Positions 10,695-44,906 of a stretch of DNA of 64,000 nt are shown one piece after another (the first letter of the stretch is position 1; each line of letters starts with the position of its first letter). Position numbers and translations under genes: made by a program. Where the stretch lies: the IMG/VR virus record IMGVR_UViG_3300027740_000003, positions 1 to 64,000 of that record. The stretch is one strand, 5' to 3'. The DNA is from a virus. Its lineage: Duplodnaviria; Caudoviricetes. The notes under the pieces were generated by a model. The model was not told the DNA's origin. It did no database searches and was given only the letters and a program-made list of their open reading frames with translations.

Positions 10695-12626
10695 TTATAA
10701 CTCTTCTAATTCTTCTTCCATTCCGGAACTAAGAATAGGCCATCTGCACCAACTCCTAGGATCTAAATTCTCATCATCAAAATGGAAGCTTGGAGCGTAC
10801 CTTTCTCGTTTCCATTGATTCCGACTCCATAGTCTGAAGAACTTCTTAATCCACTCTTTTAATTTTTCATCTTCTGTTCCAGGAAATTCATTCATCGCTC
10901 TAAAATAATCAAAACATTCTTTGGGAGAAAGCTTATCTCGAATTGCTTTTTCCTCAATTGCTTCCAATGCCCAATATGGCATTAAATCATCTTCGTCTAT
11001 TTGATTCTGATCTAATGGACGAAGCTCAGCACTTGGACAAAGGTTTTTATAAAACTCTAAAGGTCTTGAATATTCTTTTTTGGACAAATAATCAAGCCAA
11101 GAAAGAACAAACTCTTTATCAATCCCGGCAATAGGAGCTAATCCTCCACAAGTATCGCCATCCATTGTTGCATATCCAACAGCTGCTTCGCTTCTATTGC
11201 TTGTGGTCAACAATAAAGCGTTTTTGATATTGGCCAACAACCATACGCTTGGAACCCTTACTCTAGCTTGAATATTCTGTAAAGCAACGTCATCCTTCTC
11301 CCAAACTAATTCTCTGCCAATCATTTCTTCAATTTTGAACAAATAATCATTTATAACATTATCAACATAAATCAAATAAAATTTAGCCCCCAGTTCGGCA
11401 GATAATTTTCTAGCAGAATGTAAAGTTTCTAAATCATTATTTTTTGTTTTTTGATATACACAAGTTAATATTTTTTCCAAAATATTTTTTTTATTTGTTC
11501 CATATTTTATCCCAAAGTAATTAAATATTGCTTCTGGATTTTCACACATAACATTTTCAACCATTTTGTGAACCATAATAGCCACAGCGCTGCTATCCGC
11601 TCCTCCACTTAATGAAAGCACAAATCCATTAGACTTGCTTTTTCTCATATAATCCCACAAAGCAAGCGAAGACGCAGCACTGAATTCTTCAAACTTATTC
11701 AAAGAGATCTGTGCGACAAACTTGTTTTCATTATCAAAAGTGGCTTGTGGAAATTTAACAGAGGCAGTTTTAGAATTAATGCAATCTTCTGGACGATACA
11801 TTCCATTTGCACACTGTGCCGTTCTTGTCTGGTCAATGTCAACAATAGCTGTAGATAAATAATGATCTTTAAAAGAAAACCTTTTCCCACATGACAACAG
11901 ATTTCCATTGCTAGCAATGATCGTATCTCCGTCATAGATGATTCTGCCAGCTTCATTGCCTAACAAATTAGCATAAATATAAGTACAGCGAAATGCTCTA
12001 GACCCCTCTAGAACAAATCGCTCTCTTATTTCGGATTTTCCAAATGCAAAATGGCTTGCACTAGGATTCAGAATGATATCCACACCATGAGAAGCTAACT
12101 TGATTCCCGGTCTATCAGCAACCCAGGCATCTTCACATATTTCAAACCCAATTTTAATTCCATCAATGTCTAAAATAGAATCGCCAATATAACAGCCTTT
12201 AACCATAGAAGAACAACCGTCCTTCCACGGTTTAAACCAACGGGATTCATAATGAATTCCATCGGATGCCAGGTTTTTCTTAGCGGCAATATAAAGAACT
12301 TTACTAATAGCAAATTCTTTTTTCCCAATAACCGCAGAACAATTATACAAAGCATTATTCCATCGGACAGGTAAACCAACCGAAAAAATAACACCAGTAT
12401 CTAATCGTTCTAGTCTTTCAAGAACTTCCCAGGCTTTTTCAGCCACATGATTGGATAAAAAAACATCTTCACAACCATATCCTGTGATGCAAAGCTCAGG
12501 AAGGCACAATAAACCAACCCCTCTTGCTTCAGCTTCTTTAATTGCCGCAACAATACGGTTATAATTCCCCTCCCAATCAAGGGGAATTTGGTTTACAGAG
12601 GCGGCTCCGACCTTAATTAGTCTCAT
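10695..12626 (-). CDS. nadE: Glutamine-dependent NAD+ synthetase
   Basis: Nitrilase domain (LPELCITGY, AAKKNL, FEICEDAW) plus synthetase domain (LSLSGGADS, NIQARVR, TSNRSEAAVGYATMDGD, PSAEL). Confidence 0.95.
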   Translation of the reverse strand: MRLIKVGAASVNQIPLDWEGNYNRIVAAIKEAEARGVGLLCLPELCITGYGCEDVFLSNHVAEKAWEVLERLERLDTGVIFSVGLPVRWNNALYNCSAVIGKKEFAISKVLYIAAKKNLASDGIHYESRWFKPWKDGCSSMVKGCYIGDSILDIDGIKIGFEICEDAWVADRPGIKLASHGVDIILNPSASHFAFGKSEIRERFVLEGSRAFRCTYIYANLLGNEAGRIIYDGDTIIASNGNLLSCGKRFSFKDHYLSTAIVDIDQTRTAQCANGMYRPEDCINSKTASVKFPQATFDNENKFVAQISLNKFEEFSAASSLALWDYMRKSKSNGFVLSLSGGADSSAVAIMVHKMVENVMCENPEAIFNYFGIKYGTNKKNILEKILTCVYQKTKNNDLETLHSARKLSAELGAKFYLIYVDNVINDYLFKIEEMIGRELVWEKDDVALQNIQARVRVPSVWLLANIKNALLLTTSNRSEAAVGYATMDGDTCGGLAPIAGIDKEFVLSWLDYLSKKEYSRPLEFYKNLCPSAELRPLDQNQIDEDDLMPYWALEAIEEKAIRDKLSPKECFDYFRAMNEFPGTEDEKLKEWIKKFFRLWSRNQWKRERYAPSFHFDDENLDPRSWCRWPILSSGMEEELEEL

Positions 12627-12632
12627 GCGACC

Positions 12633-12660
12633 AGTATAACCACCATGCCAGCCGTGTCAA
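12633..12660 (-). promoter_or_regulatory. sigma70-type promoter, nadE (leaderless geometry)
   Basis: TTGACA-16-TATACT, then 6 nt to ATG. Confidence 0.7.
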
Positions 12661-12695
12661 GGGGCCGCCCATAGTTGTTATTATTCAATAATCTT

Positions 12696-14009
12696 TCATT
12701 TCTTTATCTGTTGCATCCACCAGGCCCTGGACCGGTCCATTATTGCTTTGGCAACCTGTTTCCACTGTAAACCTGATTCCTCTAGCTCGGCAACGCTCTC
12801 CCTCTGCACATCCTGGCCGAATTCTTTTAGAAATTGACCAATATTTTTCATGTCAATTCCCCCAACCTTCTGTGCAATCTGTTCTAATCTATTATCTGTA
12901 CAAAACAACTCAACAAATTCGTTGATAGTAGAGACAAATTCTGGATTAATCTGTGCTGGTTGCTTTGAATTAACTACTTTATGTGCCTCTCCTTTGGCTT
13001 TAAATACCAAATCTGTATAATCTTGTTTGCTGATTAAAGTTTTGCCATCTAGAATAGGATACATTACAACCCCTTCCCCTATTCCTTCTATTCCAAATGT
13101 TTCTTTTACCCAAGGATCACATTTCTCCACATCGGCTACCATTTGGTTGATAACTTCTGTTGACTTTTTTAATTGATCCTCATCAAAATAGTCTAACTCA
13201 ATTTCGTTCCCATACCAAGGAATGATATAAACATCAGGCTCATTGTGTGGGCCAATGATTTTGGCAATTTCTGCCGGATCTGTTTCTAAATATCCATCAA
13301 TGGAACCAATTTGAATAGCAAAGATGGCCATAATCCGTTTATCAATCTTTGAAATGGCACATCTTTTTTGAATGGATTGTCCACAAAACTCTCCAAAAAT
13401 AACCAAATGATCTTTAATGCCCAAGCTATCTGCGTTCTTTCTAACATTAAGAAAAAAGTTATATTTAGCTACTGTCCAGGCAGCTGACCCCATGTTGTCT
13501 TCTTTGACACTGATGACTCTAGCATGACTTTGAGGGATAACTTTCAAACCATCATAATCAGATGGAGTCAGTTGAATACCAATATTCGTACCGTCAGCTT
13601 TGCATTTTGCCCGGTAAATGACCTTTCTTTCAAGCCCTTGTTTTTGCAAATCTCTTCGTACATTAAATAGGGACTCGATATGTGGCCAAGCAATTAAACT
13701 ACCGGCAGCCGGTTCTGGCTTGCAATATTCTTCTGACAAATCCGTTCCTTCTGAAGCTCCAGTTTTGCCTAATGCCATTCCATAAGAAGGGATATTTCTA
13801 ATTTTATGTGTTCTAATCGCCGTTCCATCTTTTAGTATAGATCCTGCCAAAACGATGGTGGCAATATCCCCAACCTCATATACGTTTTCTAGATTTGCTA
13901 CAATCTGAATTGGATCTGTTTTTTGAGGACAAACGAATTGGTATAGTTTTAAAGCATCGGCATTAGGATGCTTTTCGGCTTTAATACAACGCATTGCTAT
14001 TGCTGTCAT
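12696..14009 (-). CDS. RNA ligase (Rnl2-like) with N-terminal tRNA-binding OB domain
   Basis: N-term EKHPNADAL...QIV...GD...IRNIPSYGM (PheT-like OB); KADGTN (motif I), FGEFCG, EGIGEGVV, FKAKGEAH. Confidence 0.8.
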   Translation of the reverse strand: MTAIAMRCIKAEKHPNADALKLYQFVCPQKTDPIQIVANLENVYEVGDIATIVLAGSILKDGTAIRTHKIRNIPSYGMALGKTGASEGTDLSEEYCKPEPAAGSLIAWPHIESLFNVRRDLQKQGLERKVIYRAKCKADGTNIGIQLTPSDYDGLKVIPQSHARVISVKEDNMGSAAWTVAKYNFFLNVRKNADSLGIKDHLVIFGEFCGQSIQKRCAISKIDKRIMAIFAIQIGSIDGYLETDPAEIAKIIGPHNEPDVYIIPWYGNEIELDYFDEDQLKKSTEVINQMVADVEKCDPWVKETFGIEGIGEGVVMYPILDGKTLISKQDYTDLVFKAKGEAHKVVNSKQPAQINPEFVSTINEFVELFCTDNRLEQIAQKVGGIDMKNIGQFLKEFGQDVQRESVAELEESGLQWKQVAKAIMDRSRAWWMQQIKK

Positions 14010-14010
14010 T

Positions 14011-14805
14011 TTATTCTCCTAAATATATTCCTGCCACTGAAACATCATCGTAGTTTTCCCAGCCCAACTTTGGCATATCTTTTATAAATCTTTTTACTCT
14101 CCTCTTTATAAACTCTCCTTGATATCCTTTGAATGCCAATAGTTCTTTTAATACCTCATGATATGTTATCGGAACATTACCTTTGCTACTGTCCGATACT
14201 ACTTTTTTGGTAAAAGACTTTACTCCATCAGACATCAATAGTATTGCTTTATAAGCAAGTCTGTCAACATAAAAATATTGAAAACGTTCTTTTTGTTCTG
14301 TAATTGTTCCATCTTTGGTACTGCTGATAATAGCTTTGGTACCATATTTTTCTATATATTTATCTTCCCTTTCTTTATTTAAAGAATAAGAAAGATACCA
14401 CGGGGCTCCTGATGGATATTCTATATCTATAATATCTAGAGAATCATCATTGTTAATAAAACCCAATACCCCGTCTCCAATAACTTGAATCCAAACAAGT
14501 ATATCATCGGATATCACGGACAACAACGTAGCATCTAAACAGTCCGTGTCAACTCCCGGAAAACAAGAACATATACGCGCCGCATTATCAATAAACTTTT
14601 TGTCAAATAGGTTTTCGTGAGTTGTTGCTATTCTTTCCTCGGCAGAACATACTAGAATCCTTGCTCCAATATCTGTATGTTCCGAGCTGGAACATCCATC
14701 CGAAATAATTGCATATGATGCTCCCATGTTTGTTCTGCCACATCTAGAATAATCCTCACATACATTGTGAGACTTACCAGTAAAGAAAAAACAATCTGAA
14801 TGCAT
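14011..14805 (-). CDS. PP2C-family protein phosphatase
   Basis: GKSHNVCEDY, AIISDGCSSS, IGDG, LLMSDG, YDDVSV; start set at ATG 14805. Confidence 0.85.
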   Translation of the reverse strand: MHSDCFFFTGKSHNVCEDYSRCGRTNMGASYAIISDGCSSSEHTDIGARILVCSAEERIATTHENLFDKKFIDNAARICSCFPGVDTDCLDATLLSVISDDILVWIQVIGDGVLGFINNDDSLDIIDIEYPSGAPWYLSYSLNKEREDKYIEKYGTKAIISSTKDGTITEQKERFQYFYVDRLAYKAILLMSDGVKSFTKKVVSDSSKGNVPITYHEVLKELLAFKGYQGEFIKRRVKRFIKDMPKLGWENYDDVSVAGIYLGE

Positions 14806-15030
14806 ATTGCCCCTAATAATAATTGAACCCGCCAATTAAACGGGTTCAATTATTCAAATATATAAACGTCTATTCCGCAGATTCTAAATCTTGGTTCCGT
14901 ATTCTCTTTTTTGTAATTATAGAAAAAGAAATAACGTTTCCAAGAACGGTTCCACTCCTTTGGATTAGTATAACCAATCCAAAGGTTATTGGAAATAAAC
15001 CACATTATTGATTGGCCAGTTTTTGGCATA

Positions 15031-15786
15031 TCAAATCGTCAACGAACCATTAATGTTAATAACCTGTGATGGTCCGCCAGTTCCAAGACTTTGGCTCTGC
15101 GAAGAAATACTCTTGGAAATAAACTTGTTTAACTTAGCTAACGTAGATGCTGAAGCGTCATTTAGCTTAACAAGCTGATCAAACTTACCTTCCTTCTCAA
15201 GCTTATCAAGATAAGTAGGGCTAATGCTAGACGAATTTACTGCAACAAGTATGGTAAGAATGGATTCTAAAGCCTCTTCTTTAACACAAGAATCCTTTGC
15301 GTTTCCCACTCCTTGAGATCCAAACTTGGATACATTGTCCTCACCGTCCGTAATTACAATTACAATACCGTTAACATCAACGTCATTGGCATTTAATTGC
15401 TTGGCATAGTTTTTAATACCCTCAACTGCATCAATTGAAGCATCAAAACAAGCCGTGCTTCCACCACAGGACAGGACTCCAGAATAATCATTGATCTGAC
15501 AGTTTTCCAACAGTTTAAATCCATGAACTTCTTCTGGGGTATTGGCAAATTTAATTACCCTAACCATAAGGTTGTCTGCTCTAGGAGAATACTGAAGCGC
15601 TTTAATTGCTTCCTTGGTACACTTCTCCAGCTCTGATTGAAAAGATGCAACAGAACCACTTACATCAACAACAATTGTTGCTAAAGTATATTCGGATGCC
15701 CCAAGCTGGTCCATCCGAACACCAGAGAATCCGAAATGGCCAACGTTGGCATTTTCTTCCATTGTATTGTCATTTAATCGAGGCAT
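15031..15786 (-). CDS. vWA-domain protein (TerY-like)
   Basis: MIDAS VDVSGSV, GGSTA, VITDGEDN. Confidence 0.8.
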   Translation of the reverse strand: MPRLNDNTMEENANVGHFGFSGVRMDQLGASEYTLATIVVDVSGSVASFQSELEKCTKEAIKALQYSPRADNLMVRVIKFANTPEEVHGFKLLENCQINDYSGVLSCGGSTACFDASIDAVEGIKNYAKQLNANDVDVNGIVIVITDGEDNVSKFGSQGVGNAKDSCVKEEALESILTILVAVNSSSISPTYLDKLEKEGKFDQLVKLNDASASTLAKLNKFISKSISSQSQSLGTGGPSQVININGSLTI

Positions 15787-15799: not shown

Positions 15800-16453
15800 T
15801 TACTTCAATTCTTCTTGTTCTTCATCTGTTAAAAACGATTCGTTAGCATCAGCATCATTTGTTAATCTCATTCGAGACATTCCACGGCTCAAATTAGTAT
15901 AAACCGCTTTTGTTCCAACACGGTTGGCAGAATAATTATATGCATTTTGCGGAGCTATACCTAAAGAAGTGGCTTGTGCTGATTGAAAATCAGGATCCCC
16001 TCCTCCAAGGAACACAAATGACCACTGGTATTTGTCGGTCTGATGGTGCACCATCTCTTCCACTTTTTCTGCAAGGAATTCCTGCGAAGAATTCTCCTGC
16101 CCATCTGTAATAATTAAAAATACTACTTTTCCTGGTCGTTTATCTTCCTCTGTATTTGCTAGCCTTTCGCCAACAGTATTAATTGTCTTCCCAACCGCAT
16201 CTAACAAAGCAGTCATTCCTCTCGGAACATATGTTGTTGTGTCCAACGGCTTTACATCATTGATGTCTACACCGTTGTAATCAATTTGATACTGATCATC
16301 AAATTGAACCAATGTTAAGATTGCTTTGCCTTCCAATTTTTGCTGTTCAGTTAAGAAATTATTGAAACCGCCAATGGTTTCATTAACCAGACATGACATA
16401 GAACCAGAACGATCTATGATTGCTACAATTTCTGTTAGATTTTTATCTGTCAT
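15800..16453 (-). CDS. vWA-domain protein
   Basis: IDRSGSM, PRGMTALLDA, IITDGQEN. Confidence 0.88.
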   Translation of the reverse strand: MTDKNLTEIVAIIDRSGSMSCLVNETIGGFNNFLTEQQKLEGKAILTLVQFDDQYQIDYNGVDINDVKPLDTTTYVPRGMTALLDAVGKTINTVGERLANTEEDKRPGKVVFLIITDGQENSSQEFLAEKVEEMVHHQTDKYQWSFVFLGGGDPDFQSAQATSLGIAPQNAYNYSANRVGTKAVYTNLSRGMSRMRLTNDADANESFLTDEEQEELK

Positions 16454-16458: not shown

Positions 16459-17253
16459 TTACCTCAAAAACTTATCTGTGGTTGAAAGCTGCATTCCTTT
16501 GGAAACCATCTCTTTGATGAAATCCTCCTGGAGTTTTTCAAAACCAGGAACTGGACTTGTTGCATCTGTTAGAAGAACAAGCTTCTTAATGTAAGAAGCA
16601 TCATTGAACTGTGTTGCTAGGTCGCGAATACTATTAGCAAGACAATGTGATCCTGCTTCGCCAGCAACAACAATCAAATCGGCAGTCATTAGTGTTTGAA
16701 CTAATGCTGTATTAACCTGTGTTGACGGATCTTTGGGATCAGGAACGTCAGCCTGGAAGATTGAGTAATGCTCAGTCTTGATGTTGCTCCCTTTGGTGAC
16801 GTAATCGACTACAGCGAATTCCTCTTCCCATTTACAAAGAGCATCAAACAAAACTGGAACAACAGTGTGTCCACGGCTAGAAATGAGGCAGTGAGCTGGC
16901 CATACACATAATGGGTACCTGCCATTCTTTTCCAATTGCTTTACATAATCCAAAGAGTGTCTTTGGAAACTAGGTTGTGTCGCCATCCATCGACCAGATT
17001 CTACATCACTAACCGAGATAACTGTGAACGGACTTGGATGATCTCCGTTGCTGTTTCTCCACCAAATTGGATGAGCAATATGAACAGGATGATGACTGTC
17101 TAAAGTGATATGGATATCGTCTAATTTAGACGAACATCGTAGAACGAAATCTGTAAGCCTTGCCATGTCATCATCGGCACCTGGAACAAACAAAGCTCCA
17201 CTGGGTTCCGAAAAATCAATTTGCGGATCAATTACGAAGAGATGAACTTTCAT
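16459..17253 (-). CDS. pncA: Nicotinamidase/isochorismatase-family hydrolase (PncA-like)
   Basis: VIDPQIDF (Asp), LDSHHPVH (metal ligands), VTKGSN (Lys), EAGSHCL (Cys). Confidence 0.8.
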   Translation of the reverse strand: MKVHLFVIDPQIDFSEPSGALFVPGADDDMARLTDFVLRCSSKLDDIHITLDSHHPVHIAHPIWWRNSNGDHPSPFTVISVSDVESGRWMATQPSFQRHSLDYVKQLEKNGRYPLCVWPAHCLISSRGHTVVPVLFDALCKWEEEFAVVDYVTKGSNIKTEHYSIFQADVPDPKDPSTQVNTALVQTLMTADLIVVAGEAGSHCLANSIRDLATQFNDASYIKKLVLLTDATSPVPGFEKLQEDFIKEMVSKGMQLSTTDKFLR

Positions 17254-19982: not shown

Positions 19983-21330
19983 CTAAATCTTTTTCTTCTA
20001 AATCATCATCGTCATCCTCATCCTCAGAATACTTCCCAACAAATGAGTTCATATCATCAATATATTTAACAACCTCATCAAACGAGGTATACTTCAATTG
20101 AATAAGAACTTCTTTCAACCAAGCCCCGGTCATTTTTTCTGATTTCTCTGCAATAATATTTAACAAATCATCTTCTATATTTACATTAAATATCTTTGCA
20201 TATCCTTTAAGTATATCTAATCTTTCATTTTGATCGGGAAGATTAAATCTAACAATAGTATCTATCCTTCCAGGACGAAGAAAAGACTCTTCCATTTCTT
20301 CTGTCTTATTTGCTGTTAAAATAATAGAAACATTTGAATTGGTTTGTTTAATATGATCTAGAGTTGTAAGAAGCTCTGGTATTTTATAACTATGAGCCTT
20401 ATCAACATCGTCTACAATAATAAAATTGGGAGACAGCACATCAAATAAGAACCTAAGATTCGTTTCCGAAGTATTATGAAGCATATTAGCTCCCATTCTG
20501 ATAATCTTTCCACCAGATTCTGTAGCAAATCTTAAAGCCAAAGTGGTTTTGCCGGTTCCTGGTTTGCCCAGGAACAAATAGGTTCTAGATATATTGTCAA
20601 GAACAATCCTGCCATGCTTTTCTTTAAGTTCTTTTAGCCTTTCTGAGGCTCCTCCAAAAGCAGGAGGGTTAGGATAAGGGAAAGTTGAATAGCCGTATTC
20701 TTCGCCTCCAATGCTTGGGATTGAGCATACCTCAATCCTACCATCGTTCTTGTCCCAAATCATCTGGGACAGTTTCTTAAAATCAACACCTTTCGAATGG
20801 AAAAATACATCCCTGTAAATATATTCCCCGGCAAGATCTACCTCAACCAGAATAAAATCACCAATATCTTTATGTTTCAAAACAAGAATAGACTGATGAT
20901 CTTCAATAGGATCTCTGTCTACAACATCAAATACATCTAACATTCCGGTGGAAACAAACATATTAACAAAATGTTTATTGTTTTTAAATACGGCATCGTA
21001 TTTATTGCAAATAATCTGCATCTTACTTCTTTTGTCTCCCATAGACATAATTTTATTAATTATATTAGCAACTTTAATGCCTCCAGTAAATATATTATCT
21101 TGTTTATTAGGAAGGCTGGTAGATATTTCCGAGGCCACATTGAGTAAAGTAAAAGCATTAGATTTCAAATAAAACCAAGCCTTTTTTGTCAACGAATCAT
21201 TAGATTGTTTTTTATCACGTTTTGTTGGAGCTTCATTTTTCAATGAAGGATCATATCTGTCATTTTCAATGATAGCACGAACGTCTTCCATTATTTCAAT
21301 CCATTCTTTACGATTTGTTTGTGTTTCCAA
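19975..21330 (-). CDS. AAA+ ATPase
   Basis: GKPGTGKT, IIVDDVD, RPGRID second region of homology; acidic tail. Confidence 0.9.
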   Translation of the reverse strand: METQTNRKEWIEIMEDVRAIIENDRYDPSLKNEAPTKRDKKQSNDSLTKKAWFYLKSNAFTLLNVASEISTSLPNKQDNIFTGGIKVANIINKIMSMGDKRSKMQIICNKYDAVFKNNKHFVNMFVSTGMLDVFDVVDRDPIEDHQSILVLKHKDIGDFILVEVDLAGEYIYRDVFFHSKGVDFKKLSQMIWDKNDGRIEVCSIPSIGGEEYGYSTFPYPNPPAFGGASERLKELKEKHGRIVLDNISRTYLFLGKPGTGKTTLALRFATESGGKIIRMGANMLHNTSETNLRFLFDVLSPNFIIVDDVDKAHSYKIPELLTTLDHIKQTNSNVSIILTANKTEEMEESFLRPGRIDTIVRFNLPDQNERLDILKGYAKIFNVNIEDDLLNIIAEKSEKMTGAWLKEVLIQLKYTSFDEVVKYIDDMNSFVGKYSEDEDDDDDLEEKDLDD

Positions 21331-21944
21331 TGTTCATCTGTTTGAACATGGTTTTTTCTCACATACTTAGCAATAGATGTTTGGAACTGTTCATCAAAGA
21401 AACCTCCCTCGATTCTAATAACCAACCCTTCTCTTTCGTCCCCATAAAAAGATGGCCTCTTAGCCTCTTCAAGAATATAGTTTTCTAATTGTTTCTCGGA
21501 AAAGAACCATTTGTTTTTTGCAATAACTGGAACAGTTAATAATCCAAGGCTTTCAGCTATTGTTTCAACTGTAGGCCACATATACCAAGCGGATTCTTTG
21601 TCATCATCGTATCTTGCTGCAAAAATCATCAGGTATGCAGGCAATGAATCATAATAAATAGAATGTTGTGCAAATAACCATTCTCCATATATAGAAACAT
21701 TCTTTGGAAGAATATATTTAATAGAAGCGTGAATTGATTTTAATTGATCAAATGAAGGATGGTTAGGAGAACCCGAATGGCTTCTAGCAAAACAATTATC
21801 TTTGGAAAGAAAGACATTAGACCCGTCTAATTTTTCCGTAATTATCAATGGTTTGTTCAGCAGGCACGAGACATTATGCATAATTTTATCATCATTACTT
21901 GCTCCTGGGGAGAATGGAAGATGATATGTTCGTGGGTATTTCAT
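21291..21944 (-). CDS. Compact RNA ligase-family nucleotidyltransferase
   Basis: KYPRTYHLPFSPG, TEKLDGSN, YGEWLFA, EGLVIR, AKYVR. Confidence 0.8.
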   Translation of the reverse strand: MKYPRTYHLPFSPGASNDDKIMHNVSCLLNKPLIITEKLDGSNVFLSKDNCFARSHSGSPNHPSFDQLKSIHASIKYILPKNVSIYGEWLFAQHSIYYDSLPAYLMIFAARYDDDKESAWYMWPTVETIAESLGLLTVPVIAKNKWFFSEKQLENYILEEAKRPSFYGDEREGLVIRIEGGFFDEQFQTSIAKYVRKNHVQTDEHWKHKQIVKNGLK

Positions 21945-29105: not shown

Positions 29106-29957
29106 TTAATTACCCTTTTTGGGAACCCTTTTAACCTGTGTCTTCTTTACCGGATTGTCAATGGGGAATCTGTATCCTTTTGACACAGGGACGTCATTTT
29201 TTAAACTTTCTTCTAGTGCAGAAAAGATATCTACAACTGGTGCCGCTGCAACTGTTCCAGGAGTAATTACAGCTTTAGGATCTTTCTTTTTATCCTCAAC
29301 CGCTTTTAATACCCTCTCAGCAAATTTATCGTGATATTTGCAAGCTTCAAACCTTGGCATACTAAGTTTATCAATCAACCGACATGCCATGTTTGTTTCT
29401 GCTTCAGTCGTTCCAATGTCAGCATAGTTATCTTCATAATCCCTTACTTCATTGATGTAATACAATGTATGTAAAAGTAATCCGCCTTTATATGGTCGGA
29501 GAAGAACAAGATGATCTTTGCCTCGATTGGTCCAATAACCAACAGCAGCTTTATTTTTCAAAGCCATTGAGTCGGCAAGTAGTTTGAAAGCCCGGTCAGC
29601 TCCTTTGTCTGGTTTAACATAACAAGAAGATTCGACATGAATCAAATCTACACTTTCTACCGGAACAAAGTTTTCAATTTCAACCGCACCTTTTGTTCCT
29701 GTTGATTCTAAAGCAGCAATTTCTTCTTTTGTAAAGACAACAAACTTTCCGGTTTCATATTCGAAACCAGAATTGCATTCAATTCTTTTAACTTCTTTAT
29801 CAGAAATAGGATCGAATGCTTCTTGTTTTAAAGCGTTGCCTTCTGGGGTAATTTTTTTGAACCTAATTGTTTCTGAACTTGCTGCTTTGTAATATTTTAC
29901 AGGAATAGAAAGTTTGCCAAAAGAAATTGGACCCGATGCTACTGCTCTGTCTGCCAT
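29106..29957 (-). CDS. ku: Prokaryotic Ku DNA-end-binding protein
   Basis: GPISFGKLSIPVKYYKA, GFEYETGKFVVFTKEEI, IENFVP, YVKPD, LLHTLYYINEVR, YHDKF. Confidence 0.92.
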   Translation of the reverse strand: MADRAVASGPISFGKLSIPVKYYKAASSETIRFKKITPEGNALKQEAFDPISDKEVKRIECNSGFEYETGKFVVFTKEEIAALESTGTKGAVEIENFVPVESVDLIHVESSCYVKPDKGADRAFKLLADSMALKNKAAVGYWTNRGKDHLVLLRPYKGGLLLHTLYYINEVRDYEDNYADIGTTEAETNMACRLIDKLSMPRFEACKYHDKFAERVLKAVEDKKKDPKAVITPGTVAAAPVVDIFSALEESLKNDVPVSKGYRFPIDNPVKKTQVKRVPKKGN

Positions 29958-30630: not shown

Positions 30631-31110
30631 TTATTCCTTGTTTAATATAAATAATGCTGCAAAGACATGCTTCTCCTGCAACCCAAATATATAATCTGTT
30701 TTAATAAGATATGAAAATAGATTTCCCATATCATCTCCATCATCAATAATTACAAATTTGTCAACAGCATTGGTTTTTAACCACTCTTTTATTTCAGAAC
30801 CTCTATCTATAACCCTCGTAGAACTTCCTAGCTCCGGAGTAATCCCTATTATTCTGTCTTGATACGCAAATCCTTTTTCTAGCAATGCTGTTTTAATTTC
30901 ATCCAAAGATAACATTTTTCTCCAAGAACTAGAGATTACTATGCTTGCATCAGTTCTATCACAAAGAGAATTAAGTTGGATAATGTTGTCGTTAGAAATG
31001 TAATTCGAAGGATGTTTTTCCATTTCTTTTGCGGAAAATGTTTTATACTGCTCTTTCAAATAGAGCTCGTTGTTTAAAACGCCGTCAATGTCAAGAAATA
31101 TAACCTTCAC
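30631..31110 (-). CDS. HAD-domain protein (Swiss-army-knife RNA-repair-associated type)
   Basis: IFLDIDGVLN, IVISSSWR, RGSEIKEWL, FVIIDD. Confidence 0.85.
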   Translation of the reverse strand: MKVIFLDIDGVLNNELYLKEQYKTFSAKEMEKHPSNYISNDNIIQLNSLCDRTDASIVISSSWRKMLSLDEIKTALLEKGFAYQDRIIGITPELGSSTRVIDRGSEIKEWLKTNAVDKFVIIDDGDDMGNLFSYLIKTDYIFGLQEKHVFAALFILNKE

Positions 31111-32228: not shown

Positions 32229-32429
32229 CTACTCGACACAGATTTTTGCAATTAATGCTTTCAACGCTTCTTCCTCAGATTGATACAATGTAGTTTCGGC
32301 AACCACCTTTCCTCCTATTTCAATAGAGGCTCTCCAACCAATTTTGTTAGCAAAAGCACACTTATCAATGCAGATATCGTCTACATGGCAATCAAATAAT
32401 TCAGCAATTGTTTTAAGAAGATCTTTCAC
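32229..32429 (-). CDS. Hypothetical protein
   Basis: 66-aa ORF overlapping the ABC ATPase stop. Confidence 0.55.
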   Translation of the reverse strand: MKDLLKTIAELFDCHVDDICIDKCAFANKIGWRASIEIGGKVVAETTLYQSEEEALKALIAKICVE

Positions 32430-33229
32430 GACATGTAGTCTTCAATTTCTTGAACCATTGATGTGAACTCTGGAGATCTTTTCATCTTTCTATTTCTTTC
32501 TAACGGCAATGGAGAGACAAACTTCTTGGTAATATTCGCCGGCTTGCCGCCCATAACATAAATGTCATCACCAAGATATACTGCCTCCGAGATATCATGC
32601 GTTACCATGATAATTGTAGGCTCAATGTGAATCCAAATCTTGGCTAACAAATCCTGCATTTGAGTCCTAGTCTCAATGTCTAATGCTCCAAAAGGTTCGT
32701 CCATTAACAATATTTTAGAATCGTAAGCAAGACTCCTAGCAATTGCAACTCTTTGTAATTGTCCTCCAGATAGATTAGGATACTTTGCAAATTTGTTCTC
32801 CTGGCCCTCTAATCCAACTTTGACAATCATCTCCATTGCTTTTTCATTGCGTTCCTTCTTTGGAACACCACGATAACGTAATCCTAAAGAAACATTGTCT
32901 AGGACCGTCATGTGCTCCAATGAAGAATATTTTTGGAATACCATTCCTACTCTGTCATCCTCCTTGCGGGGCCTCCCACAAATCAAAACTTCACCAGATG
33001 TAGGGCTTCTCAAACCTGAGATATATGAAAGGATATGCGTTTTTCCAGATCCAGAGGCCCCAAGCACAACAATGAACTCACCTTTGCCTGGCAAATCTTC
33101 AATAAGAAGATTCAGTCCATCGATAACAACATTCTCTTTTCCGTCCTGATAATATACTTGGCGAACATTTTTCAGCTCAACAAGATCGGGAAGCTCCGTA
33201 TTAATCATCTCTACAGGTTGTGTTGTCAT
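32426..33229 (-). CDS. ABC transporter ATP-binding subunit (TauB/SsuB-like)
   Basis: GASGSGKT, LSGGQLQR, LLMDEPFGALD, VTHD. Confidence 0.95.
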   Translation of the reverse strand: MTTQPVEMINTELPDLVELKNVRQVYYQDGKENVVIDGLNLLIEDLPGKGEFIVVLGASGSGKTHILSYISGLRSPTSGEVLICGRPRKEDDRVGMVFQKYSSLEHMTVLDNVSLGLRYRGVPKKERNEKAMEMIVKVGLEGQENKFAKYPNLSGGQLQRVAIARSLAYDSKILLMDEPFGALDIETRTQMQDLLAKIWIHIEPTIIMVTHDISEAVYLGDDIYVMGGKPANITKKFVSPLPLERNRKMKRSPEFTSMVQEIEDYMS

Positions 33230-33238
33230 ATATACCTT

Positions 33239-34024
33239 TTAAACATATTTATATGGGAAAATTGTTTTGTCAAGCAATTGAAACAGTTTATCTTGAATGA
33301 ATCCAACAAAGACAATCACAAACAATAGGGCAAATACTTTGTCTATCCTGCCTTGCCGAGCACAAACAAACAACATTCCACCGATTCCTCCTGTGTTATT
33401 TACCATCTCGGCAACAATAACATAGGTCCATGATATGGCAACCAGAACACGAATGTCATTCATCAGCTGGCCAATAACATGAGGAAAGAAAACCGTCCTG
33501 AACATCTGCCATCTGTTTGCTGACAGAGTAAAGGCCGTTTGTTGATATACTTCCGGAACCTCTAAAACCCTTTGAACAACAACAGGCAGAAGATAAACCA
33601 TGATTCCGAAAGCCAGAAACTGAACCTTCATCGTGTTGTCAATACCAAACCACACAATGAACAGCCCCGTCACAGCAGTTAGCGGTATAAACCTAATGGA
33701 GTCTATAGACCTGCTAAACATGCTCTTAAAGATCGGAAACAGCCCAATCAGGAAACCAATTGGCAAACAGATTGCAATAGCTTCTATGTATCCCATTCCG
33801 TTAAGATACATGGAGTATATGAGATTCCTTACCATTGCGTCTTTGAAGTGTAGGTCTGGCAAAGAAGCAACCACTGACATAGGAGACGGCAGCAACTTGT
33901 CGGACACAACGCCAATTGAGCTAATCAACCACCAGGTTCCTAAAAGAAGAAGGATACCGGCAACCTCCAAGGCTGCCGATACCCTCTTGTCTAGGATCCC
34001 TCTTATCGAGAAAAGGGTTTCCAT
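33239..34024 (-). CDS. ABC transporter permease (TauC/SsuC-like)
   Basis: LLPSPMSV, RFIPLTA, multiple TM helices, VVAEMV. Confidence 0.92.
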   Translation of the reverse strand: METLFSIRGILDKRVSAALEVAGILLLLGTWWLISSIGVVSDKLLPSPMSVVASLPDLHFKDAMVRNLIYSMYLNGMGYIEAIAICLPIGFLIGLFPIFKSMFSRSIDSIRFIPLTAVTGLFIVWFGIDNTMKVQFLAFGIMVYLLPVVVQRVLEVPEVYQQTAFTLSANRWQMFRTVFFPHVIGQLMNDIRVLVAISWTYVIVAEMVNNTGGIGGMLFVCARQGRIDKVFALLFVIVFVGFIQDKLFQLLDKTIFPYKYV

Positions 34025-34032
34025 TTTATTTT

Positions 34033-35580
34033 TTAGTTCTCCAGGATTTGGAAATCTGTTCTTCGGTTTCTGGCACGACAGATTTCAGTATCATCGCTGC
34101 ACTGTGGCTTGTCAGGTCCATTGCCTACCACTACAAACCTGTTCTGATCCATCTTATGAGTCTCCACAAGATAGCTTACAACAGTCTGTGCCCTGGCCTT
34201 GCTGATCTTCCTATTGACATCAGCACTTCCTGTAGAATCCGTATTGCCCTCAATTCGAATTCGTGATGTGGGGAATGCCTTTGCTTGCTCAACGAACATC
34301 ATATCAATGATTCCTTTGGCATTCTCGTCAAGCTCAGAGCTTCCATGGGCAAAAGACACCCTAACCGGCTTACTAGCAACCGCTTTTGCCGCTACTTCCA
34401 CCTTGGTTGGTGCTGTAAATGCAGCCTTCTTCTCAGCAACCATGCCAATCTCCTGCTCTAAGTTTATCTCTTTGATGAAGGCTGTGTCTACAATCTGAGC
34501 CCAAGGCAGAGATCCGCTGGCCAGATTAAGCTTTCCATATACCGTTGTCATCTTCTCATACAGATCCTTGCCAGTGACGCCAGTATAGCCAGGATTCAAG
34601 CCAAAGAAGTCCAGGTTGTCTCCATATGTAGTAAGCCTAACATTATTGATTGCTCCAATACAGAACTCAGCATCAACCGAAGAGCCCAGTCCATCAGCAA
34701 GTACCTTGGCCGCCTTTGCCTTCACCTCATTGGAAGCATTAATTTCTGCCGCTCCTTTTAGCCAACCACGAACAAGCTTCACAAGCTCTGGCCTGCGTTT
34801 ATTATAGGTAGATTCCTTGATAAAGAACCCATCAGAGATGATATGAGTGGCTTGTTTGGTATTCACAAGGATTTTTGCTCCTGAAACAGCCTGGACACAA
34901 GCGGCATCATCAGGGCTCCAAACCACAGCGGCATCAACTTTGCCAGCCTTGAATGCTGCGGCAGCATCAATTGCTGAGTTTACCTTGACAACATTAACAT
35001 CCATTATTGATAGGCCTGCCATATCGAGCATCCAAAGCAAGAATGTATGTGATGGAGTCGCTTCGGCCACAGCAATCTTCTTTCCAGCAAGATCACCAAC
35101 AGCACCAACATTACCCTTGGTCACGATAGCGTCTCCACCGCGGGACCAATCAGCTTGGAAAAGCCACTTAACCGGCTCACCAAAACTACCCGACTCGGTT
35201 GGAAAGGAATCTATGGTAGACCACATCAGATCCATCTTGCCTGCCTTAAAAGCAGCTCGAGAGGCAGCAAAATCATCCATTACAGAGAAGTTAACACAGA
35301 TGTCGTCTTGATGATATCTCGAATTGGGATTATCTTTAAACCCTCCGTTCCACCACTGGCCACCGATATATCCTCCCCACGTCACCACCCCAATCTCTAA
35401 GCATTTATTCGTGGTTGTAGAAGCTGTTGCAGAAGCAGAGCCTCTCATCATACCAGAAACATCCTGAGCCTTATCTCCTTCTGGAAGAACCAGGGGACGA
35501 AGGAAAATGATGCTACCAACAATCGCGGAAGCAACAAGGACCGTGATTGCAATCTTACCAGCTGGTTTAATTTTTGCCAT
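34033..35580 (-). CDS. NMT1/SsuA-like substrate-binding protein fused to C-terminal OmpA-like domain
   Basis: N-term TM anchor; QADWSRGGDAIV, LAGKKIAV; OmpA: FAHGSSEL, IEGNTDSTG, NRKISKARA, NRRTDF. Confidence 0.88.
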   Translation of the reverse strand: MAKIKPAGKIAITVLVASAIVGSIIFLRPLVLPEGDKAQDVSGMMRGSASATASTTTNKCLEIGVVTWGGYIGGQWWNGGFKDNPNSRYHQDDICVNFSVMDDFAASRAAFKAGKMDLMWSTIDSFPTESGSFGEPVKWLFQADWSRGGDAIVTKGNVGAVGDLAGKKIAVAEATPSHTFLLWMLDMAGLSIMDVNVVKVNSAIDAAAAFKAGKVDAAVVWSPDDAACVQAVSGAKILVNTKQATHIISDGFFIKESTYNKRRPELVKLVRGWLKGAAEINASNEVKAKAAKVLADGLGSSVDAEFCIGAINNVRLTTYGDNLDFFGLNPGYTGVTGKDLYEKMTTVYGKLNLASGSLPWAQIVDTAFIKEINLEQEIGMVAEKKAAFTAPTKVEVAAKAVASKPVRVSFAHGSSELDENAKGIIDMMFVEQAKAFPTSRIRIEGNTDSTGSADVNRKISKARAQTVVSYLVETHKMDQNRFVVVGNGPDKPQCSDDTEICRARNRRTDFQILEN

Positions 35581-35614
35581 TATTTATTGTTCTACCTTTC
35601 TTTATCTTCTTAAT

Positions 35615-36631
35615 TCACTTAAGAAAAATCTTTGAAAACTCATTTGAGCTTGCTTCTGTTTCAGCTTGATATTGTTCAGCCTCAACTAAAGATGCCGAAG
35701 AACTATCGACACGAACCTTGCCAGTTAGATCTCCTGCTTTGTAAGAAAGGATTTCTGAACCGTTCTTTTCCCACTGTTCTAACAGAGCCAGGCCGTCCTC
35801 ATTGAACACACCGTTCTGCAAATCCATGGACAGCATAAAGTCTTTGCTGGTATCCATGAACCGATCCATTTCACCAAGTTTCATAGCAATATCATTGGCG
35901 GTGTATTCCATTGTCTGCTCAAACATTGCTTTGGCTTTATCGCCTTCAATAAGAGCCTCCGCACCCTTCATTGCTTTAAAAGAAGCCGTAATGCTCTTAT
36001 ATTCTATCTCACGAATATAAACCTCATGCTTCGTATCTTCGTACAGATCATTAAGATTGCTTTTCATCTTGCTTAGAATTCTTAGAATGTTTTCAGTCTT
36101 ATCAAGAATTACTGAAAGTTTCTCGGCAAAATGCTTTTCTCGGGCTGCCATATTGGCTTTTAGAGCCGCCTGATTTGGTTGCCCAGCTTTCTTGGCGGCA
36201 TTTGCTAACTTAATGTATTGCTCAATGTTCTGTAGTCTCTCAGTAATATTTCTCTCAAGACTAACTTTCTGGCCGCTAACTTCTTTGATATGCTTTTCAA
36301 CTTTGGCCAAACGTTCTTGCATTTCTTCTAGATAATTTTTTAGAATACCAATTGGGTCAACCGCAATAACCCAGCCAGTAAGCCAGCGCATTGCGCTTTG
36401 GAACAAAGAGGAACAAACGAACCTAAACTTATCATTCATCAACAGAGTAAAGATGGCAAACAGTCCGGCCCCGAGCAAGCTGGCATAAAGAAGATTAGAA
36501 AGGATAACGATAATTACTGGAAGCAGATACCAGCAAGCAACACCAGCACCAACAACGCCTGCTCCAATGAAAATTAGGCCAGTATTGCCCTCAGGCTTCT
36601 CGAAAAAACTCTTGATTTTAGGCTGTTCCAT
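35615..36631 (-). CDS. Membrane-anchored PspA/IM30-like coiled-coil protein
   Basis: N-terminal TM hairpin; LKNYLEEMQERL...YIKLANAAKKAGQPNQAAL resembles PspA helices. Confidence 0.6.
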   Translation of the reverse strand: MEQPKIKSFFEKPEGNTGLIFIGAGVVGAGVACWYLLPVIIVILSNLLYASLLGAGLFAIFTLLMNDKFRFVCSSLFQSAMRWLTGWVIAVDPIGILKNYLEEMQERLAKVEKHIKEVSGQKVSLERNITERLQNIEQYIKLANAAKKAGQPNQAALKANMAAREKHFAEKLSVILDKTENILRILSKMKSNLNDLYEDTKHEVYIREIEYKSITASFKAMKGAEALIEGDKAKAMFEQTMEYTANDIAMKLGEMDRFMDTSKDFMLSMDLQNGVFNEDGLALLEQWEKNGSEILSYKAGDLTGKVRVDSSSASLVEAEQYQAETEASSNEFSKIFLK

Positions 36632-41908: not shown

Positions 41909-41909
41909 A

Positions 41910-42407
41910 TTATATTGTTCTCAGTTCTTTTCTTACATCCATTAATACTTTGCCAAGCAAATTGGTTCCTTTCCATTTGCTTTCATCCTGTGCTTCCGGA
42001 TCGCCTTCCGCCAACCCAATCCCCCATATTTTATCATATGGAGAAGCTTCCACTAGAACTTTATTTTCCGTATCTAATAGTTGTTTTGATAACCAACTGT
42101 TTTGTGCAAACTTGTGCTGAACAGCCAAGTACATAGCTGGAATACATTTTAGTTTCCACACTTCCGGATCAAAGTTTTTAACTTGTCTTCCTAATTTCTT
42201 GCATTGAATTGGGGTATTATTTACATTGCACATCTTTAAAATATCATTGGCAGTTTCTGTGTCTGAAAATGAAATAGCTTTCAACCACATATAGGATTGC
42301 TCTGACCAATAAAAATGATGCCCCTCCATATCAAATTGAGCGGGATAAAAATTGGAATATATATCCTCTTCTCCCCAGAACAAAACATACTTATCTGTTG
42401 TGATCAT
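41910..42407 (-). CDS. NADAR (YbiA/DUF1768) family protein
   Basis: YSNFY, SEQSYMWLKA, KKLGRQVKNFD, KFAQN, LVEASPYDKIWGIG, GTNLLGKVLM. Confidence 0.92.
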   Translation of the reverse strand: MITTDKYVLFWGEEDIYSNFYPAQFDMEGHHFYWSEQSYMWLKAISFSDTETANDILKMCNVNNTPIQCKKLGRQVKNFDPEVWKLKCIPAMYLAVQHKFAQNSWLSKQLLDTENKVLVEASPYDKIWGIGLAEGDPEAQDESKWKGTNLLGKVLMDVRKELRTI

Positions 42408-42564
42408 TGTGGTCCTTATTTATTGTAAGTAGCGAGAAGATTTTTGTATAGCAAAGAACGCAAAGATGATGTTTTTGTACCAAGTTATTGTTGGGCGGCC
42501 CAAATAATAGACCTCCAGGTTCTTTTAATTCAGAACCACATCTAATACAATCTACTTTAATCAT
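42391..42564 (-). CDS. Small zinc-ribbon protein (57 aa)
   Basis: Manual translation MIKVDCIRCG...HHLCVLCY. Confidence 0.55.
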   Translation of the reverse strand: MIKVDCIRCGSELKEPGGLLFGPPNNNLVQKHHLCVLCYTKIFSLLTINKDHNDHNR

Positions 42565-42566
42565 CT

Positions 42567-42884
42567 TTATATTTCTTTATCTGCTTCCTGCAATGCTGCA
42601 ATTAAATGTTCCACATCTTCTTTGCTCATTACGATCTCGCCACAATCACCATACCGAGACTTGTATCCAATAACATGTTTAATTGCTTGCCACAATCTTT
42701 TATACCATTGCCAATTATAATTGAGATGATATCTGATATACATCTGTTCATAATCTTTTTCATTCTTTTTTGGCCGCCAAGAAAATCCAATAATGTGTTC
42801 CAATTCGCCACAAGTACATTGAACAATATAACTTTTCTCATCTTGCCATTTAGGATCTTTCCTAATCTTTTTAAATATGCTCAT
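42567..42884 (-). CDS. Hypothetical protein
   Basis: CTCGELEH, WYKRLWQAIKHVIGYKSRYG; start reset to ATG 42884. Confidence 0.6.
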   Translation of the reverse strand: MSIFKKIRKDPKWQDEKSYIVQCTCGELEHIIGFSWRPKKNEKDYEQMYIRYHLNYNWQWYKRLWQAIKHVIGYKSRYGDCGEIVMSKEDVEHLIAALQEADKEI

Positions 42885-42889
42885 TGAGT

Positions 42890-43771
42890 TTACCTTGATT
42901 GAAGAAGTGAGATTTTTTGCAAAACACAAGAAGTATGTTTGTTGCACAACCTGCTGTTAAAAAATAGCTCTGGAACCACACTGCATTTTGCAATATCTAA
43001 TGGACAGATAATCTTTTCACCATCAGGAAATATGTTTCCAAACCTACAACGTTTTACCGTATCAAAGCTTTGCGATTTTGTTCTCAATACTCCCCGTGTA
43101 GCAATATCAATTCGTGGAATGTTCCCACTATATAAATTAATAAATGTTTGTGCTATGTTTGCATAATCGTCATTAGAAATAGTATCTGGCGTATCCTCCC
43201 AATAATCGTTAGTAATAGCAATGTCTCGGATTGAACTAAGATATAACGATGTACAATTAAACCTAGCTTCTGCTTGTGCAGCAAGATCGTATAAACAAGA
43301 AACATTATCTTTGCGCAACATTAATACTATCTTCGTTGGCCAATCTGTTTCTTGAACTTTAGATAACGGCTTTTCGGATGTATCAGATCCTAGAACCCCA
43401 ATACGCAAATCTACATTTGTATTAGGAAGATTTTTAATAGATTCTAGGTGTCTTCCATTGGTGTATATTGTTGTCAATAGATTGCGTTTAATATTCTCAG
43501 AAATAATATCACCAAGCTGTGGATGAAGAAGAGGTTCGCCTCCAAGCAGAGTTATTTTCCCAATATGTTGTGAATACTTATCAAGAATACTACGATAAGT
43601 AGCAAGGCTCATGTCTTGATTATCTAATTTGTGGCCATAAAAACAACCTTTACACCTAAGATTACAACGATTAGTAATGAATACTTGAAGTGTATTTACG
43701 GGCAGTACAGAAATTTCTTGCCATTTTGATTGATCATAATCCAAAATATATGATTGTTTAGATGCAGTCAT
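42890..43771 (-). CDS. Radical SAM protein
   Basis: ITNRCNLRCKGCFY (CxxxCxxC), LLGGEPLLHP, YTNG; Cys-rich C-terminus. Confidence 0.9.
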   Translation of the reverse strand: MTASKQSYILDYDQSKWQEISVLPVNTLQVFITNRCNLRCKGCFYGHKLDNQDMSLATYRSILDKYSQHIGKITLLGGEPLLHPQLGDIISENIKRNLLTTIYTNGRHLESIKNLPNTNVDLRIGVLGSDTSEKPLSKVQETDWPTKIVLMLRKDNVSCLYDLAAQAEARFNCTSLYLSSIRDIAITNDYWEDTPDTISNDDYANIAQTFINLYSGNIPRIDIATRGVLRTKSQSFDTVKRCRFGNIFPDGEKIICPLDIAKCSVVPELFFNSRLCNKHTSCVLQKISLLQSR

Positions 43772-44906
43772 TTTGAACAGACTCTTTCAACCACCCTAGA
43801 TATGTTTTGTCATTACAAACGGCCTTGCTTGGATCAACAGATAGTTTTGCAACTGGCCTGCCGTTTAGTTTTACTAATTTCATTACAATATTTAATGGTT
43901 TTACGCCAGGAATATCATTGGTTAAATGAGTTCCAATTCCATATATGGTTTTGATTCTGCCGTCAGTTTTAGTCTCAATCTGTTGGGCTTTTTTTACAGT
44001 TAATGCGTTGCTAAAAATAGCCGTTTTTCTTTTAGGATCAATGCCACAATTAGAATACATCTCTAGCATTCTATTTAGCCAAACAATCTCATCTCCACTA
44101 TCTTGTCTTACTCCGTCAAAAGTCTTTGCCAAAGAACCAGAAAAGTCTTTTACGAATTTATCTGTACCCAAAGTATCACTAAGAGCAATGCCCAGTTGCC
44201 CATTATATTCTTGTTGCCAGATCTCCAACATTCTTTTCTGAGAATCCATTGGATGAAACAACGCTTGGCCGGCAGAGATCCATTCATGAGCCATTGTGCC
44301 AACGGCAGGAATGTTATTCTGAGCGGCAAAAAGAACATTGCTTGTTCCAATGAATGTGCTTCTTGGAAGAGAAGAAGCTAGTGTTTTAACAACTTGTTCT
44401 TGCCAATACCCAGCTCTTCTTCTTCTTGTTCCCATATCAACTAACTTGATAGGGTTTGCTAATAGCGAAACAATTTTATCATTAAGAATAGCTGTGCCAG
44501 AATTTGCAGCGCAAAATGAATTAAAATATAATTCACTTACAGTGGCGAGAACTGGAACCTCGTACCAAATGGTATTGATCCATGGGCCTTTAATCGTAAT
44601 ATCAAGAAAACCTTGGTCATCAGAGATTTCAACATAACGTTGCGGATTTAGTTTAAAGTTGTCAATATAATCTAGAAAATCTTTGCTGATCCATTTGATG
44701 TTTTCTAATTGGCTAGTAGGTTTAGAAACCGTGGCCCATGTTGAAATCTCATTTATCAAATGATTTTTTAAAAATCCCAGTTCCGTTTCTGCGCCCCGAC
44801 AAATAAATTGATACTCAGCTGTTGCTCCAGGGAAATGATGGAACACAGCTTGAGCCATCGAAAATTTATAAGCGTCTTGATCTAAGAAATTATTCCAAAT
44901 TGCCAT
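43758..44906 (-). CDS. pncB: Nicotinate phosphoribosyltransferase
   Basis: DQDAYKFSM, DMGTRRR, GTSNV, GTMAHEW, LSDT, GVRQDSGD, YGIGTHLT, VMKL. Confidence 0.92.
   Translation of the reverse strand: MAIWNNFLDQDAYKFSMAQAVFHHFPGATAEYQFICRGAETELGFLKNHLINEISTWATVSKPTSQLENIKWISKDFLDYIDNFKLNPQRYVEISDDQGFLDITIKGPWINTIWYEVPVLATVSELYFNSFCAANSGTAILNDKIVSLLANPIKLVDMGTRRRRAGYWQEQVVKTLASSLPRSTFIGTSNVLFAAQNNIPAVGTMAHEWISAGQALFHPMDSQKRMLEIWQQEYNGQLGIALSDTLGTDKFVKDFSGSLAKTFDGVRQDSGDEIVWLNRMLEMYSNCGIDPKRKTAIFSNALTVKKAQQIETKTDGRIKTIYGIGTHLTNDIPGVKPLNIVMKLVKLNGRPVAKLSVDPSKAVCNDKTYLGWLKESVQNDCI

Follow-up and report, generated by a model that had tools for sequence, protein, structure and literature searches.

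Depletion of nicotinamide adenine dinucleotide (NAD+) is a common tactic of bacteria against phages, and a phage genome that carries genes for NAD+ synthesis raises the questions of which route these genes encode, whether the phage can complete it, and what the route is for. We analyzed a 64,000-nucleotide stretch of DNA (hereafter the window; 35% G+C, with nearly all genes on the minus strand) that forms bases 1-64000 of the 435,004-bp Caudoviricetes record IMGVR_UViG_3300027740_000003 in IMG/VR. A first-pass annotation had placed six NAD-related genes within 10695-44906, encoding a PncA-like nicotinamidase, nicotinate phosphoribosyltransferase (PncB), glutamine-dependent NAD+ synthetase (NadE), a NADAR protein, a NUDIX protein, and a second isochorismatase-family protein, and had read from them a route from nicotinamide through nicotinate, nicotinate mononucleotide (NaMN), and nicotinate adenine dinucleotide (NaAD) to NAD+. 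The first four genes do lie in that range on the minus strand, whereas the last two fall outside it; likewise the three enzymes were read correctly, but the adenylyltransferase step between NaMN and NaAD is not encoded by the phage. Of the four steps in the nicotinate route the phage encodes three, short of a complete Preiss-Handler pathway, and its predicted first enzyme sits in a cassette with a von Willebrand factor A (vWA) protein, a PP2C phosphatase, and a Ser/Thr kinase (Table 1).

Table 1. Features of the window discussed in the text, with the matches on which each assignment is based.
Position	Strand	Feature	Basis
2..1900	-	LigA, NAD+-dependent DNA ligase	DNA_ligase_aden, OB, HhH, and BRCT domains
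2087..3241	-	Nucleoside 2-deoxyribosyltransferase-like protein fused to a degenerate Nudix domain	Nudix is the C-terminal half
6801..8492	-	Cassette Ser/Thr kinase, 563 aa, N-terminal kinase and C-terminal domain of ~300 aa	38% identity to bacterial cassette gene, full length
10695..12626	-	NadE, glutamine-dependent NAD+ synthetase, 643 aa; predicted NaAD to NAD+	CN_hydrolase and NAD_synthase
12696..14009	-	Rnl2-type RNA ligase, N-terminal tRNA-binding OB domain, between PP2C and NadE	phrog_548, E 5.8e-36
14011..14835	-	Cassette PP2C phosphatase, 274 aa	PP2C_2, E 7.5e-13; 35% identity to bacterial cassette gene
15031..15786	-	Cassette vWA protein, 251 aa, intact metal ion-dependent adhesion site (MIDAS)	49% identity to bacterial cassette gene
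15800..16453	-	Second vWA protein, 217 aa, extra copy	Pfam VWA, E 1.3e-4; phrog_7371, E 1.6e-59
16459..17253	-	Long-form PncA-type nicotinamidase, 264 aa, first cassette gene; predicted nicotinamide to nicotinate	Residues, fold
41910..42407	-	NADAR-domain protein, loosely cassette-associated	PF08719, 151.8 bits
43758..44906	-	PncB, nicotinate phosphoribosyltransferase, 382 aa; predicted nicotinate to NaMN	NAPRTase_N and NAPRTase; NCBIfam
57337..57849	-	Isochorismatase-family protein, small (170 aa), lacking the metal motif of nicotinamidases	PF00857, 37.6 bits

Three predicted enzymes of the nicotinate route

The predicted first enzyme aligns weakly with yeast Pnc1, and the alignment places both the catalytic triad that the first-pass annotation had recognized (D9/K154/C204) and a full set of metal ligands (D52/H54/H121). 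Among 25 and 34 family members in two alignments, the triad is invariant or nearly so and the metal site is invariant; an Asp-His-His metal site is what separates nicotinamidases from other isochorismatase-like hydrolases. The AlphaFold2 model of the protein has a predicted local distance difference test score (pLDDT) of 94.7, and the top 12 PDB folds that Foldseek returned for it are all nicotinamidases, ranked ahead of other isochorismatase-like enzymes, with the best matches to Pnc1 (3v8e) and the Acinetobacter baumannii enzyme (2wt9) at a template modeling (TM) score of 0.80 by target. Homologues number 2440, at about 65% identity, and some members of the family do match PF00857. Because this long form also lies directly beside PncB at loci that carry no kinase, PP2C, or vWA gene (L082, L083, L117, and L161), its context supports the view that it is the real PncA of the genomes carrying it. 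We consider it probable, as part of the reading of the whole route, that the 264-aa protein is a metal-dependent nicotinamidase of the PncA type, an activity predicted from residues and modeled fold.

The two later enzymes match established families. PncB exceeds the cut-offs of TIGR01514 (369.3 bits against 269.55) and of NF003704 (426.7 against 379), the phospho-histidine motif GTMAHEW that the first-pass annotation had noted in it lines up with GTMAHEW in PncB of known structure (1yir), and it is the sole NAPRTase-family gene of the 435-kb genome. NadE carries both of the domains claimed for it and can be aligned end to end with 3ilv, a glutamine-dependent NadE of known structure (E 4.5e-181), keeping the SLSGGADSS P-loop (SGGxDS) and the E/K/C positions; it also passes the domain model TIGR00552 (89.5 against 63.65).

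The adenylyltransferase is absent from the whole genome

That no adenylyltransferase is encoded in the window had been noted in the first-pass annotation, and the same is true of the rest of the genome. Six-frame searches of all 435 kb for a NaMN or nicotinamide mononucleotide (NMN) adenylyltransferase gave no PF01467 or TIGR00482 match, while 14 of 14 control genomes responded to the same searches. Two phage NadD-type proteins used as tblastn and phmmer queries against the genome yielded nothing credible for NadD, and neither did a scan for the HIGH motif. Since the genome lacks NadD, the route would have to use that of the host.

CheckV rates the record as 100% complete, and terminal repeats are absent from it. 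The open reading frame of LigA is truncated at position 1 of the record, and joining the contig ends adds two residues followed by a stop codon. Because the frame closes two codons past the joined ends, the record appears to be a complete, circularly permuted genome without a gap at the junction. LigA is also the clear NAD+ consumer of the phage; as for further clear consumers, SIR2 was not found, and any matches to Macro or KptA stayed below their cut-offs.

Other means of making NAD+ were searched for in the genome as well. Three phage NAD+ reconstitution pathways (NARPs) have been described, namely NARP1 (Adps and Namat), NARP2 (Nampt and Nmnat), and NARP3 (PnuC and NadR) (bioRxiv 10.1101/2024.02.11.579819; PMC13464706). 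In the genome there is no second NAPRTase-family gene that could be Nampt, no Pribosyltran_N match that would indicate Prs or Adps, and no PnuC. The three sets are thus lacking in their Adps-like, Nampt, PF01467, or PnuC members, Namat itself not having been searched for. NrtR was not found in the phage genome either.

To ask how general the missing step is, we surveyed 24 large cassette-bearing viral records of 191-485 kb. A PF01467 match above cut-off was present in 18, NadE in 18, and a gene of PncB strength in 12, nine of which also have NadE; all four steps occur together in six. A NAPRTase-family gene is absent from seven records, and in five others the matches are weak (450-531 aa) and stay below PncB strength. 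The adenylyltransferases linked to the cassette in relatives are of the NadD type. The NadD-less set recurs in other giant-phage genomes: nicotinamidase, PncB, and NadE occur without a PF01467 gene in a 350-kb genome with terminal repeats and 100% completeness (G010) and in a 224-kb genome of 91% completeness (G004), and in a third (G014; 195 kb, 100%) the sole PF01467 match is below cut-off.

A nicotinamidase-vWA-PP2C-kinase cassette in phages and bacteria

The genes beside the nicotinamidase form a set that is also found in bacteria. Complete Capsulimonadaceae chromosomes carry a five-gene cluster that encodes nicotinamidase, vWA protein (247 aa), PP2C, kinase (552 aa), and PncB, and the phage has homologues of all five (65% identity for the nicotinamidase and 41% for PncB; the others are in Table 1). 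In the phage the MIDAS residues of the cassette vWA protein (D41/S45/T111/D147) are invariant among 34 sequences, the metal-binding Asp residues of PP2C are conserved, and so are G22-G23, K36, D136/N141, and D155 of the kinase in 36 sequences. The vWA, PP2C, and kinase proteins thus occur together, with catalytic and MIDAS residues kept, in an architecture of the TerY-P type. The phage block is stretched, with the Rnl2-type ligase, NadE, and three small membrane proteins lying between PP2C and the kinase, all in the same direction. The three small proteins (8464-10627, between NadE and the kinase) are tandem paralogues, each with two apparent C-terminal membrane helices and a shared acidic tail motif; we considered them as importers of niacin or nicotinamide and rejected this idea.

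An alignment-based scan found the nicotinamidase on 242 IMG/VR contigs. We examined 82 of these viral loci and counted PncB, NadD, and NadE when they lay within 10 kb. The nicotinamidase gene is followed by the vWA gene in 75 loci, by PP2C in 74, and by the kinase in 73; these genes are co-directional and their order hardly ever varies, and a second vWA copy, as in this phage, occurs in six. Genes for NAD+ synthesis are less regular companions (PncB in 22 loci, NadD-type in 10, NadE in 5). Where they occur they are often interleaved inside the cassette (L019, L036, L045, L052, and L060), and one locus (L011) has the order PncB-NadE-nicotinamidase-vWA-PP2C-kinase-nicotinamidase-NadD. Among 50,697 GenBank phage records, the PncA-like protein occurs in four, PncB in 13, and both in two, which is beyond chance. 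Cultured jumbo phages such as Atu_ph07 already have an annotated PncB in GenBank, and the PncB-NADAR region of the present phage gave no megablast match to GenBank phages.

In bacteria, the nicotinamidase gene is present in at least 581 species representatives. Among 49 bacterial loci with enough flanking sequence, its companions are the vWA gene (44 loci), the kinase (41), PP2C (28), and PncB (13). NrtR, which responds to ADP-ribose, lies directly upstream of the cassette in three Acidobacteriota loci (L119, L121, and L126). In one of these, from an Acidobacteria metagenome-assembled genome (L119:6224-8789), NrtR is followed by a microbial-type PARG and then by the nicotinamidase, vWA, and kinase genes, an arrangement that ties the removal of poly- or mono-ADP-ribose to the cassette. 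In none of the papers searched did we find the fixed association of a nicotinamidase with a kinase, PP2C, and vWA protein.

Conservation of the three genes beside the nicotinamidase leads us to infer that the kinase, PP2C, and vWA proteins may form a phosphorylation switch on the entry of nicotinamide into the route. Prediction of a complex between the nicotinamidase and the cassette vWA protein returned a score of 0.03, which is evidence neither for nor against contact. A scan for 12-position promoter-like sites found two that score 11 of 12, upstream of the nicotinamidase and of NadE (the latter at 12660-12633); overall the scan was not above chance (84 sites found, 74.5 expected).

Neighboring genes in the window

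The Rnl2-type ligase has weak Pfam matches to tRNA_bind, RNA_ligase, and T4_Rnl2_C, and it probably serves RNA repair, outside the NAD route. The NADAR gene recurs near the PncA-like gene, within 10 kb in five viral loci and within 8 kb in two bacterial loci, and in L109, L049, and L143 it is either part of the cassette or its immediate upstream neighbor. A radical SAM gene (42890-43771) shares 14 bases with the end of PncB and comes before NADAR; it matched no specific radical SAM family and is not kept beside PncB across the 82 viral loci.

Two genes of the first-pass list proved to lie outside 10695-44906. The only NUDIX domain of the window is the C-terminal half of the fusion protein next to LigA, which scores below threshold (18.6 bits against a cut-off of 21.1) and has a Nudix box that appears degenerate in the alignment. 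This fusion family comprises at least 1606 proteins in giant phages, Armatimonadota, Planctomycetota, and bacteria of the candidate phyla radiation (CPR); in three bacterial contexts it stands alone without NAD genes, and we did not count it as part of the route. Two further NUDIX proteins are encoded elsewhere in the genome, a 562-aa protein at 314317-316005 that has an HCxxGxxR phosphatase-like motif (recognized by eye) and a NUDIX domain of 25.5 bits, and a separate 150-aa protein at 380353-380805. As for a second isochorismatase-family gene, the only one at Pfam level is the small gene near the far end of the window, whose family is mostly viral and has one homologue inside a cassette (L043).

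Several other genes stand near the NAD genes. A metallo-beta-lactamase-fold protein (26253-27053) matches the anti-Pycsar Apyc1 family of Pfam with 77.8 bits against a cut-off of 50, and by this match is a candidate cyclic-nucleotide-degrading counter-defence protein. An ABC importer set (32426-36631) consists of an ATPase, a permease, and a substrate-binding protein that carries a fused OmpA domain; next to it comes a PspA/IM30-like protein with a membrane anchor. Nucleic-acid repair is represented by Ku (29106-29957), a NYN-like nuclease (28550-29077), a HAD_SAK_2 phosphatase (30631-31110), and a compact RNA ligase (21291-21944).

Discussion

We think it probable, while allowing for real doubt, that the phage encodes three of the four deamidating salvage steps and hands NaMN to the NadD of its host, with the nicotinamidase entry gated by the cassette. 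In this scheme, the nicotinamidase would produce nicotinate from nicotinamide, PncB would convert nicotinate, phosphoribosyl pyrophosphate, and ATP to NaMN, host NadD would adenylylate NaMN to NaAD, and the glutamine-dependent NadE would amidate NaAD to NAD+. NadD is an essential bacterial enzyme with a preference for NaMN, so that the phage would be boosting the steps on either side of a dependable host enzyme, and the kinase, PP2C, and vWA trio may gate the first of them. The benefit would be an NAD+ pool that is kept up for the phage's own LigA, which needs it because it is NAD+-dependent, and probably also while NAD+ is being cleaved to nicotinamide.

Several results weigh against this reading. 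The nicotinamidase has no PF00857 match at E<=1 and reaches 26.7 of the 174 bits that the PncA equivalog NF008623 requires, and because the 264-aa protein fails both models, its substrate could differ from free nicotinamide. NadE likewise scores 246.8 against 479 for the full-length NCBIfam equivalog NF010588. The NAD genes are scattered and form no single cluster, PncB lying 27 kb from the nicotinamidase. Host NadD is assumed, and without terminal repeats the completeness of the record rests on CheckV and on the LigA frame that closes across the junction.

The missing step could instead be supplied by the phage itself with an enzyme other than NadD, and the Rnl2-type ligase, which adjoins NadE, is the candidate for moving adenosine monophosphate (AMP) to NaMN; step 1 of NAD+-dependent ligases is, after all, the chemical reverse of NMN adenylylation. 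We find this hardly credible, as the protein combines a tRNA-binding OB domain with an Rnl2 C-terminal domain in the manner of an RNA-repair ligase, it lies near the cassette in only 2 of the 82 viral loci, and the relatives that complete the route do so with an ordinary NadD. A different objection is that there may be no single pathway at all: the cassette would remove or sense nicotinamide, for instance to relieve its inhibition of NAD+-consuming enzymes or as the output of a signalling unit like TerY-P, and PncB and NadE would be independent metabolic passengers. The invariant core in phages is indeed the four-gene cassette, with far fewer NAD genes within 10 kb of it, seven of the 24 large records have no NAPRTase-family gene and five more only a weak one, and in the present genome the NAD genes lie apart. 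This account nonetheless seems improbable to us given that PncB, NadD, and NadE are found repeatedly inside the cassette, that the long-form nicotinamidase pairs directly with PncB where the trio is lacking, and that three quarters of the large records with a gene of PncB strength also have NadE.

What the route serves is a separate matter. Counter-defence against NADases is plausible, and the NAD set might be dedicated to it as a fourth NAD+ reconstitution pathway that starts from the nicotinamide released by Thoeris, DSR, or SIR2-HerA, with the kinase, PP2C, and vWA module as the switch that turns it on upon NAD+ cleavage. NADase defences do release nicotinamide, the entry substrate of the route (bioRxiv 10.1101/2024.02.11.579819). 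The position of the bacterial cassette behind NrtR in three loci, with PARG beside it in one, fits such a role, as do neighbors in the phage that include the Apyc1-like hydrolase, NADAR, and RNA-repair ligases, and the phage has none of the known reconstitution pathways, within the limit given above for Namat. On the other side, we found no study in the literature that pitted a deamidating route against a defence, and the route would take four steps, cost ATP, and depend on a host enzyme. The cassette is also chromosomal in hundreds of bacterial species representatives, which argues for a housekeeping or stress role of its own, and LigA is a simpler reason for the phage to sustain NAD+. A dedicated counter-defence function is thus possible but doubtful. 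More specifically, the cassette might be a phosphorylation-gated entry valve that opens upon NAD+ cleavage and was captured by giant phages with PncB and NadE, with or without NadD, so that it plugs into host NadD and defeats NADase defences; as a complete account we regard this as unlikely.

The chemistry itself is not new, contrary to the suggestion in the first-pass annotation that it would be a third one for phages. A 2024 study reported complete salvage or Preiss-Handler pathways in 174 jumbo phages; among the gene sets is a pncB-nadD-nadE cluster, for example in Kuafu_71, phage pncA is mentioned as well, and the genes were interpreted as NAD+ synthesis that the phage drives through nicotinate (PMC11662467). 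These "NAD-jumbo phages" resemble the present one in combining PncB, NadE, and a nicotinamidase with an NAD+-consuming ligase in the genome, but they are defined by a complete pathway that includes nadD, which is lacking here. We found no kinase, PP2C, and vWA cassette around the nicotinamidase described in that study, and its account is annotation-based, without assays of the nicotinate route (PMC11662467). Of the NARPs, the third, PnuC and NadR, is likewise already published (PMC13464706). All NARPs share with the present phage the rebuilding of NAD+ by phage-encoded enzymes from breakdown products or precursors, and NARP2 also the start from nicotinamide; however, they were described as self-sufficient two-gene pathways and tested against defences, and none of them passes through nicotinate or NaAD, whereas the present phage would leave one step to the host. 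Neither NARP paper mentions the nicotinate route (bioRxiv 10.1101/2024.02.11.579819; PMC13464706). We found no experiment in the literature on a phage deamidating route or on its counter-defence effect. Three phage pathways for rebuilding NAD+ have been shown by experiment, and the nicotinate route in jumbo phages has only been annotated.

Compared with the bacterial PncA-PncB-NadD-NadE set under NrtR, the phage uses the same enzymes and chemistry, and the bacterial cassette lies directly behind NrtR at the three loci described above. The canonical PncA, however, is a stand-alone protein of 180-215 aa, while the phage form is longer and tied to the vWA, PP2C, and kinase genes in a genome without NrtR. 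The trio has the three-protein operon architecture of the TerY-P triad (the vWA protein TerY, PP2C, and a Ser/Thr kinase) and of YegL-PphC-YegI of Escherichia coli, the nearest characterized triad, whose substrates are unknown (bioRxiv 10.1101/819920, 10.1101/303594). It differs in being fixed to a nicotinamidase and NAD genes, a link to a TerY-P-like triad that we found in no paper searched. In PADLOC, no model matched the vWA or PP2C protein and the kinase matched weakly and only to PD-T4-6 kinase models, the TerY-P models of that library not having been checked.

The chemistry of the route is therefore ordinary and published in outline, and what goes beyond it is the recurrent NadD-less form and the fixed coupling of the nicotinamidase to the kinase, phosphatase, and vWA proteins. 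The former is a leaner nicotinate route, in which the steps flanking the essential host NadD are kept and the adenylyltransferase is dropped, as is also the case in at least two other near-complete giant-phage genomes. As to the latter, the enzyme that opens the route is coupled in a fixed manner to the trio in hundreds of bacterial species and hundreds of phage contigs. If it is true that the trio controls the nicotinamidase, NAD+ homeostasis would gain a new control point, and the nicotinamidase would be the first metabolic target for a TerY-P-like triad.

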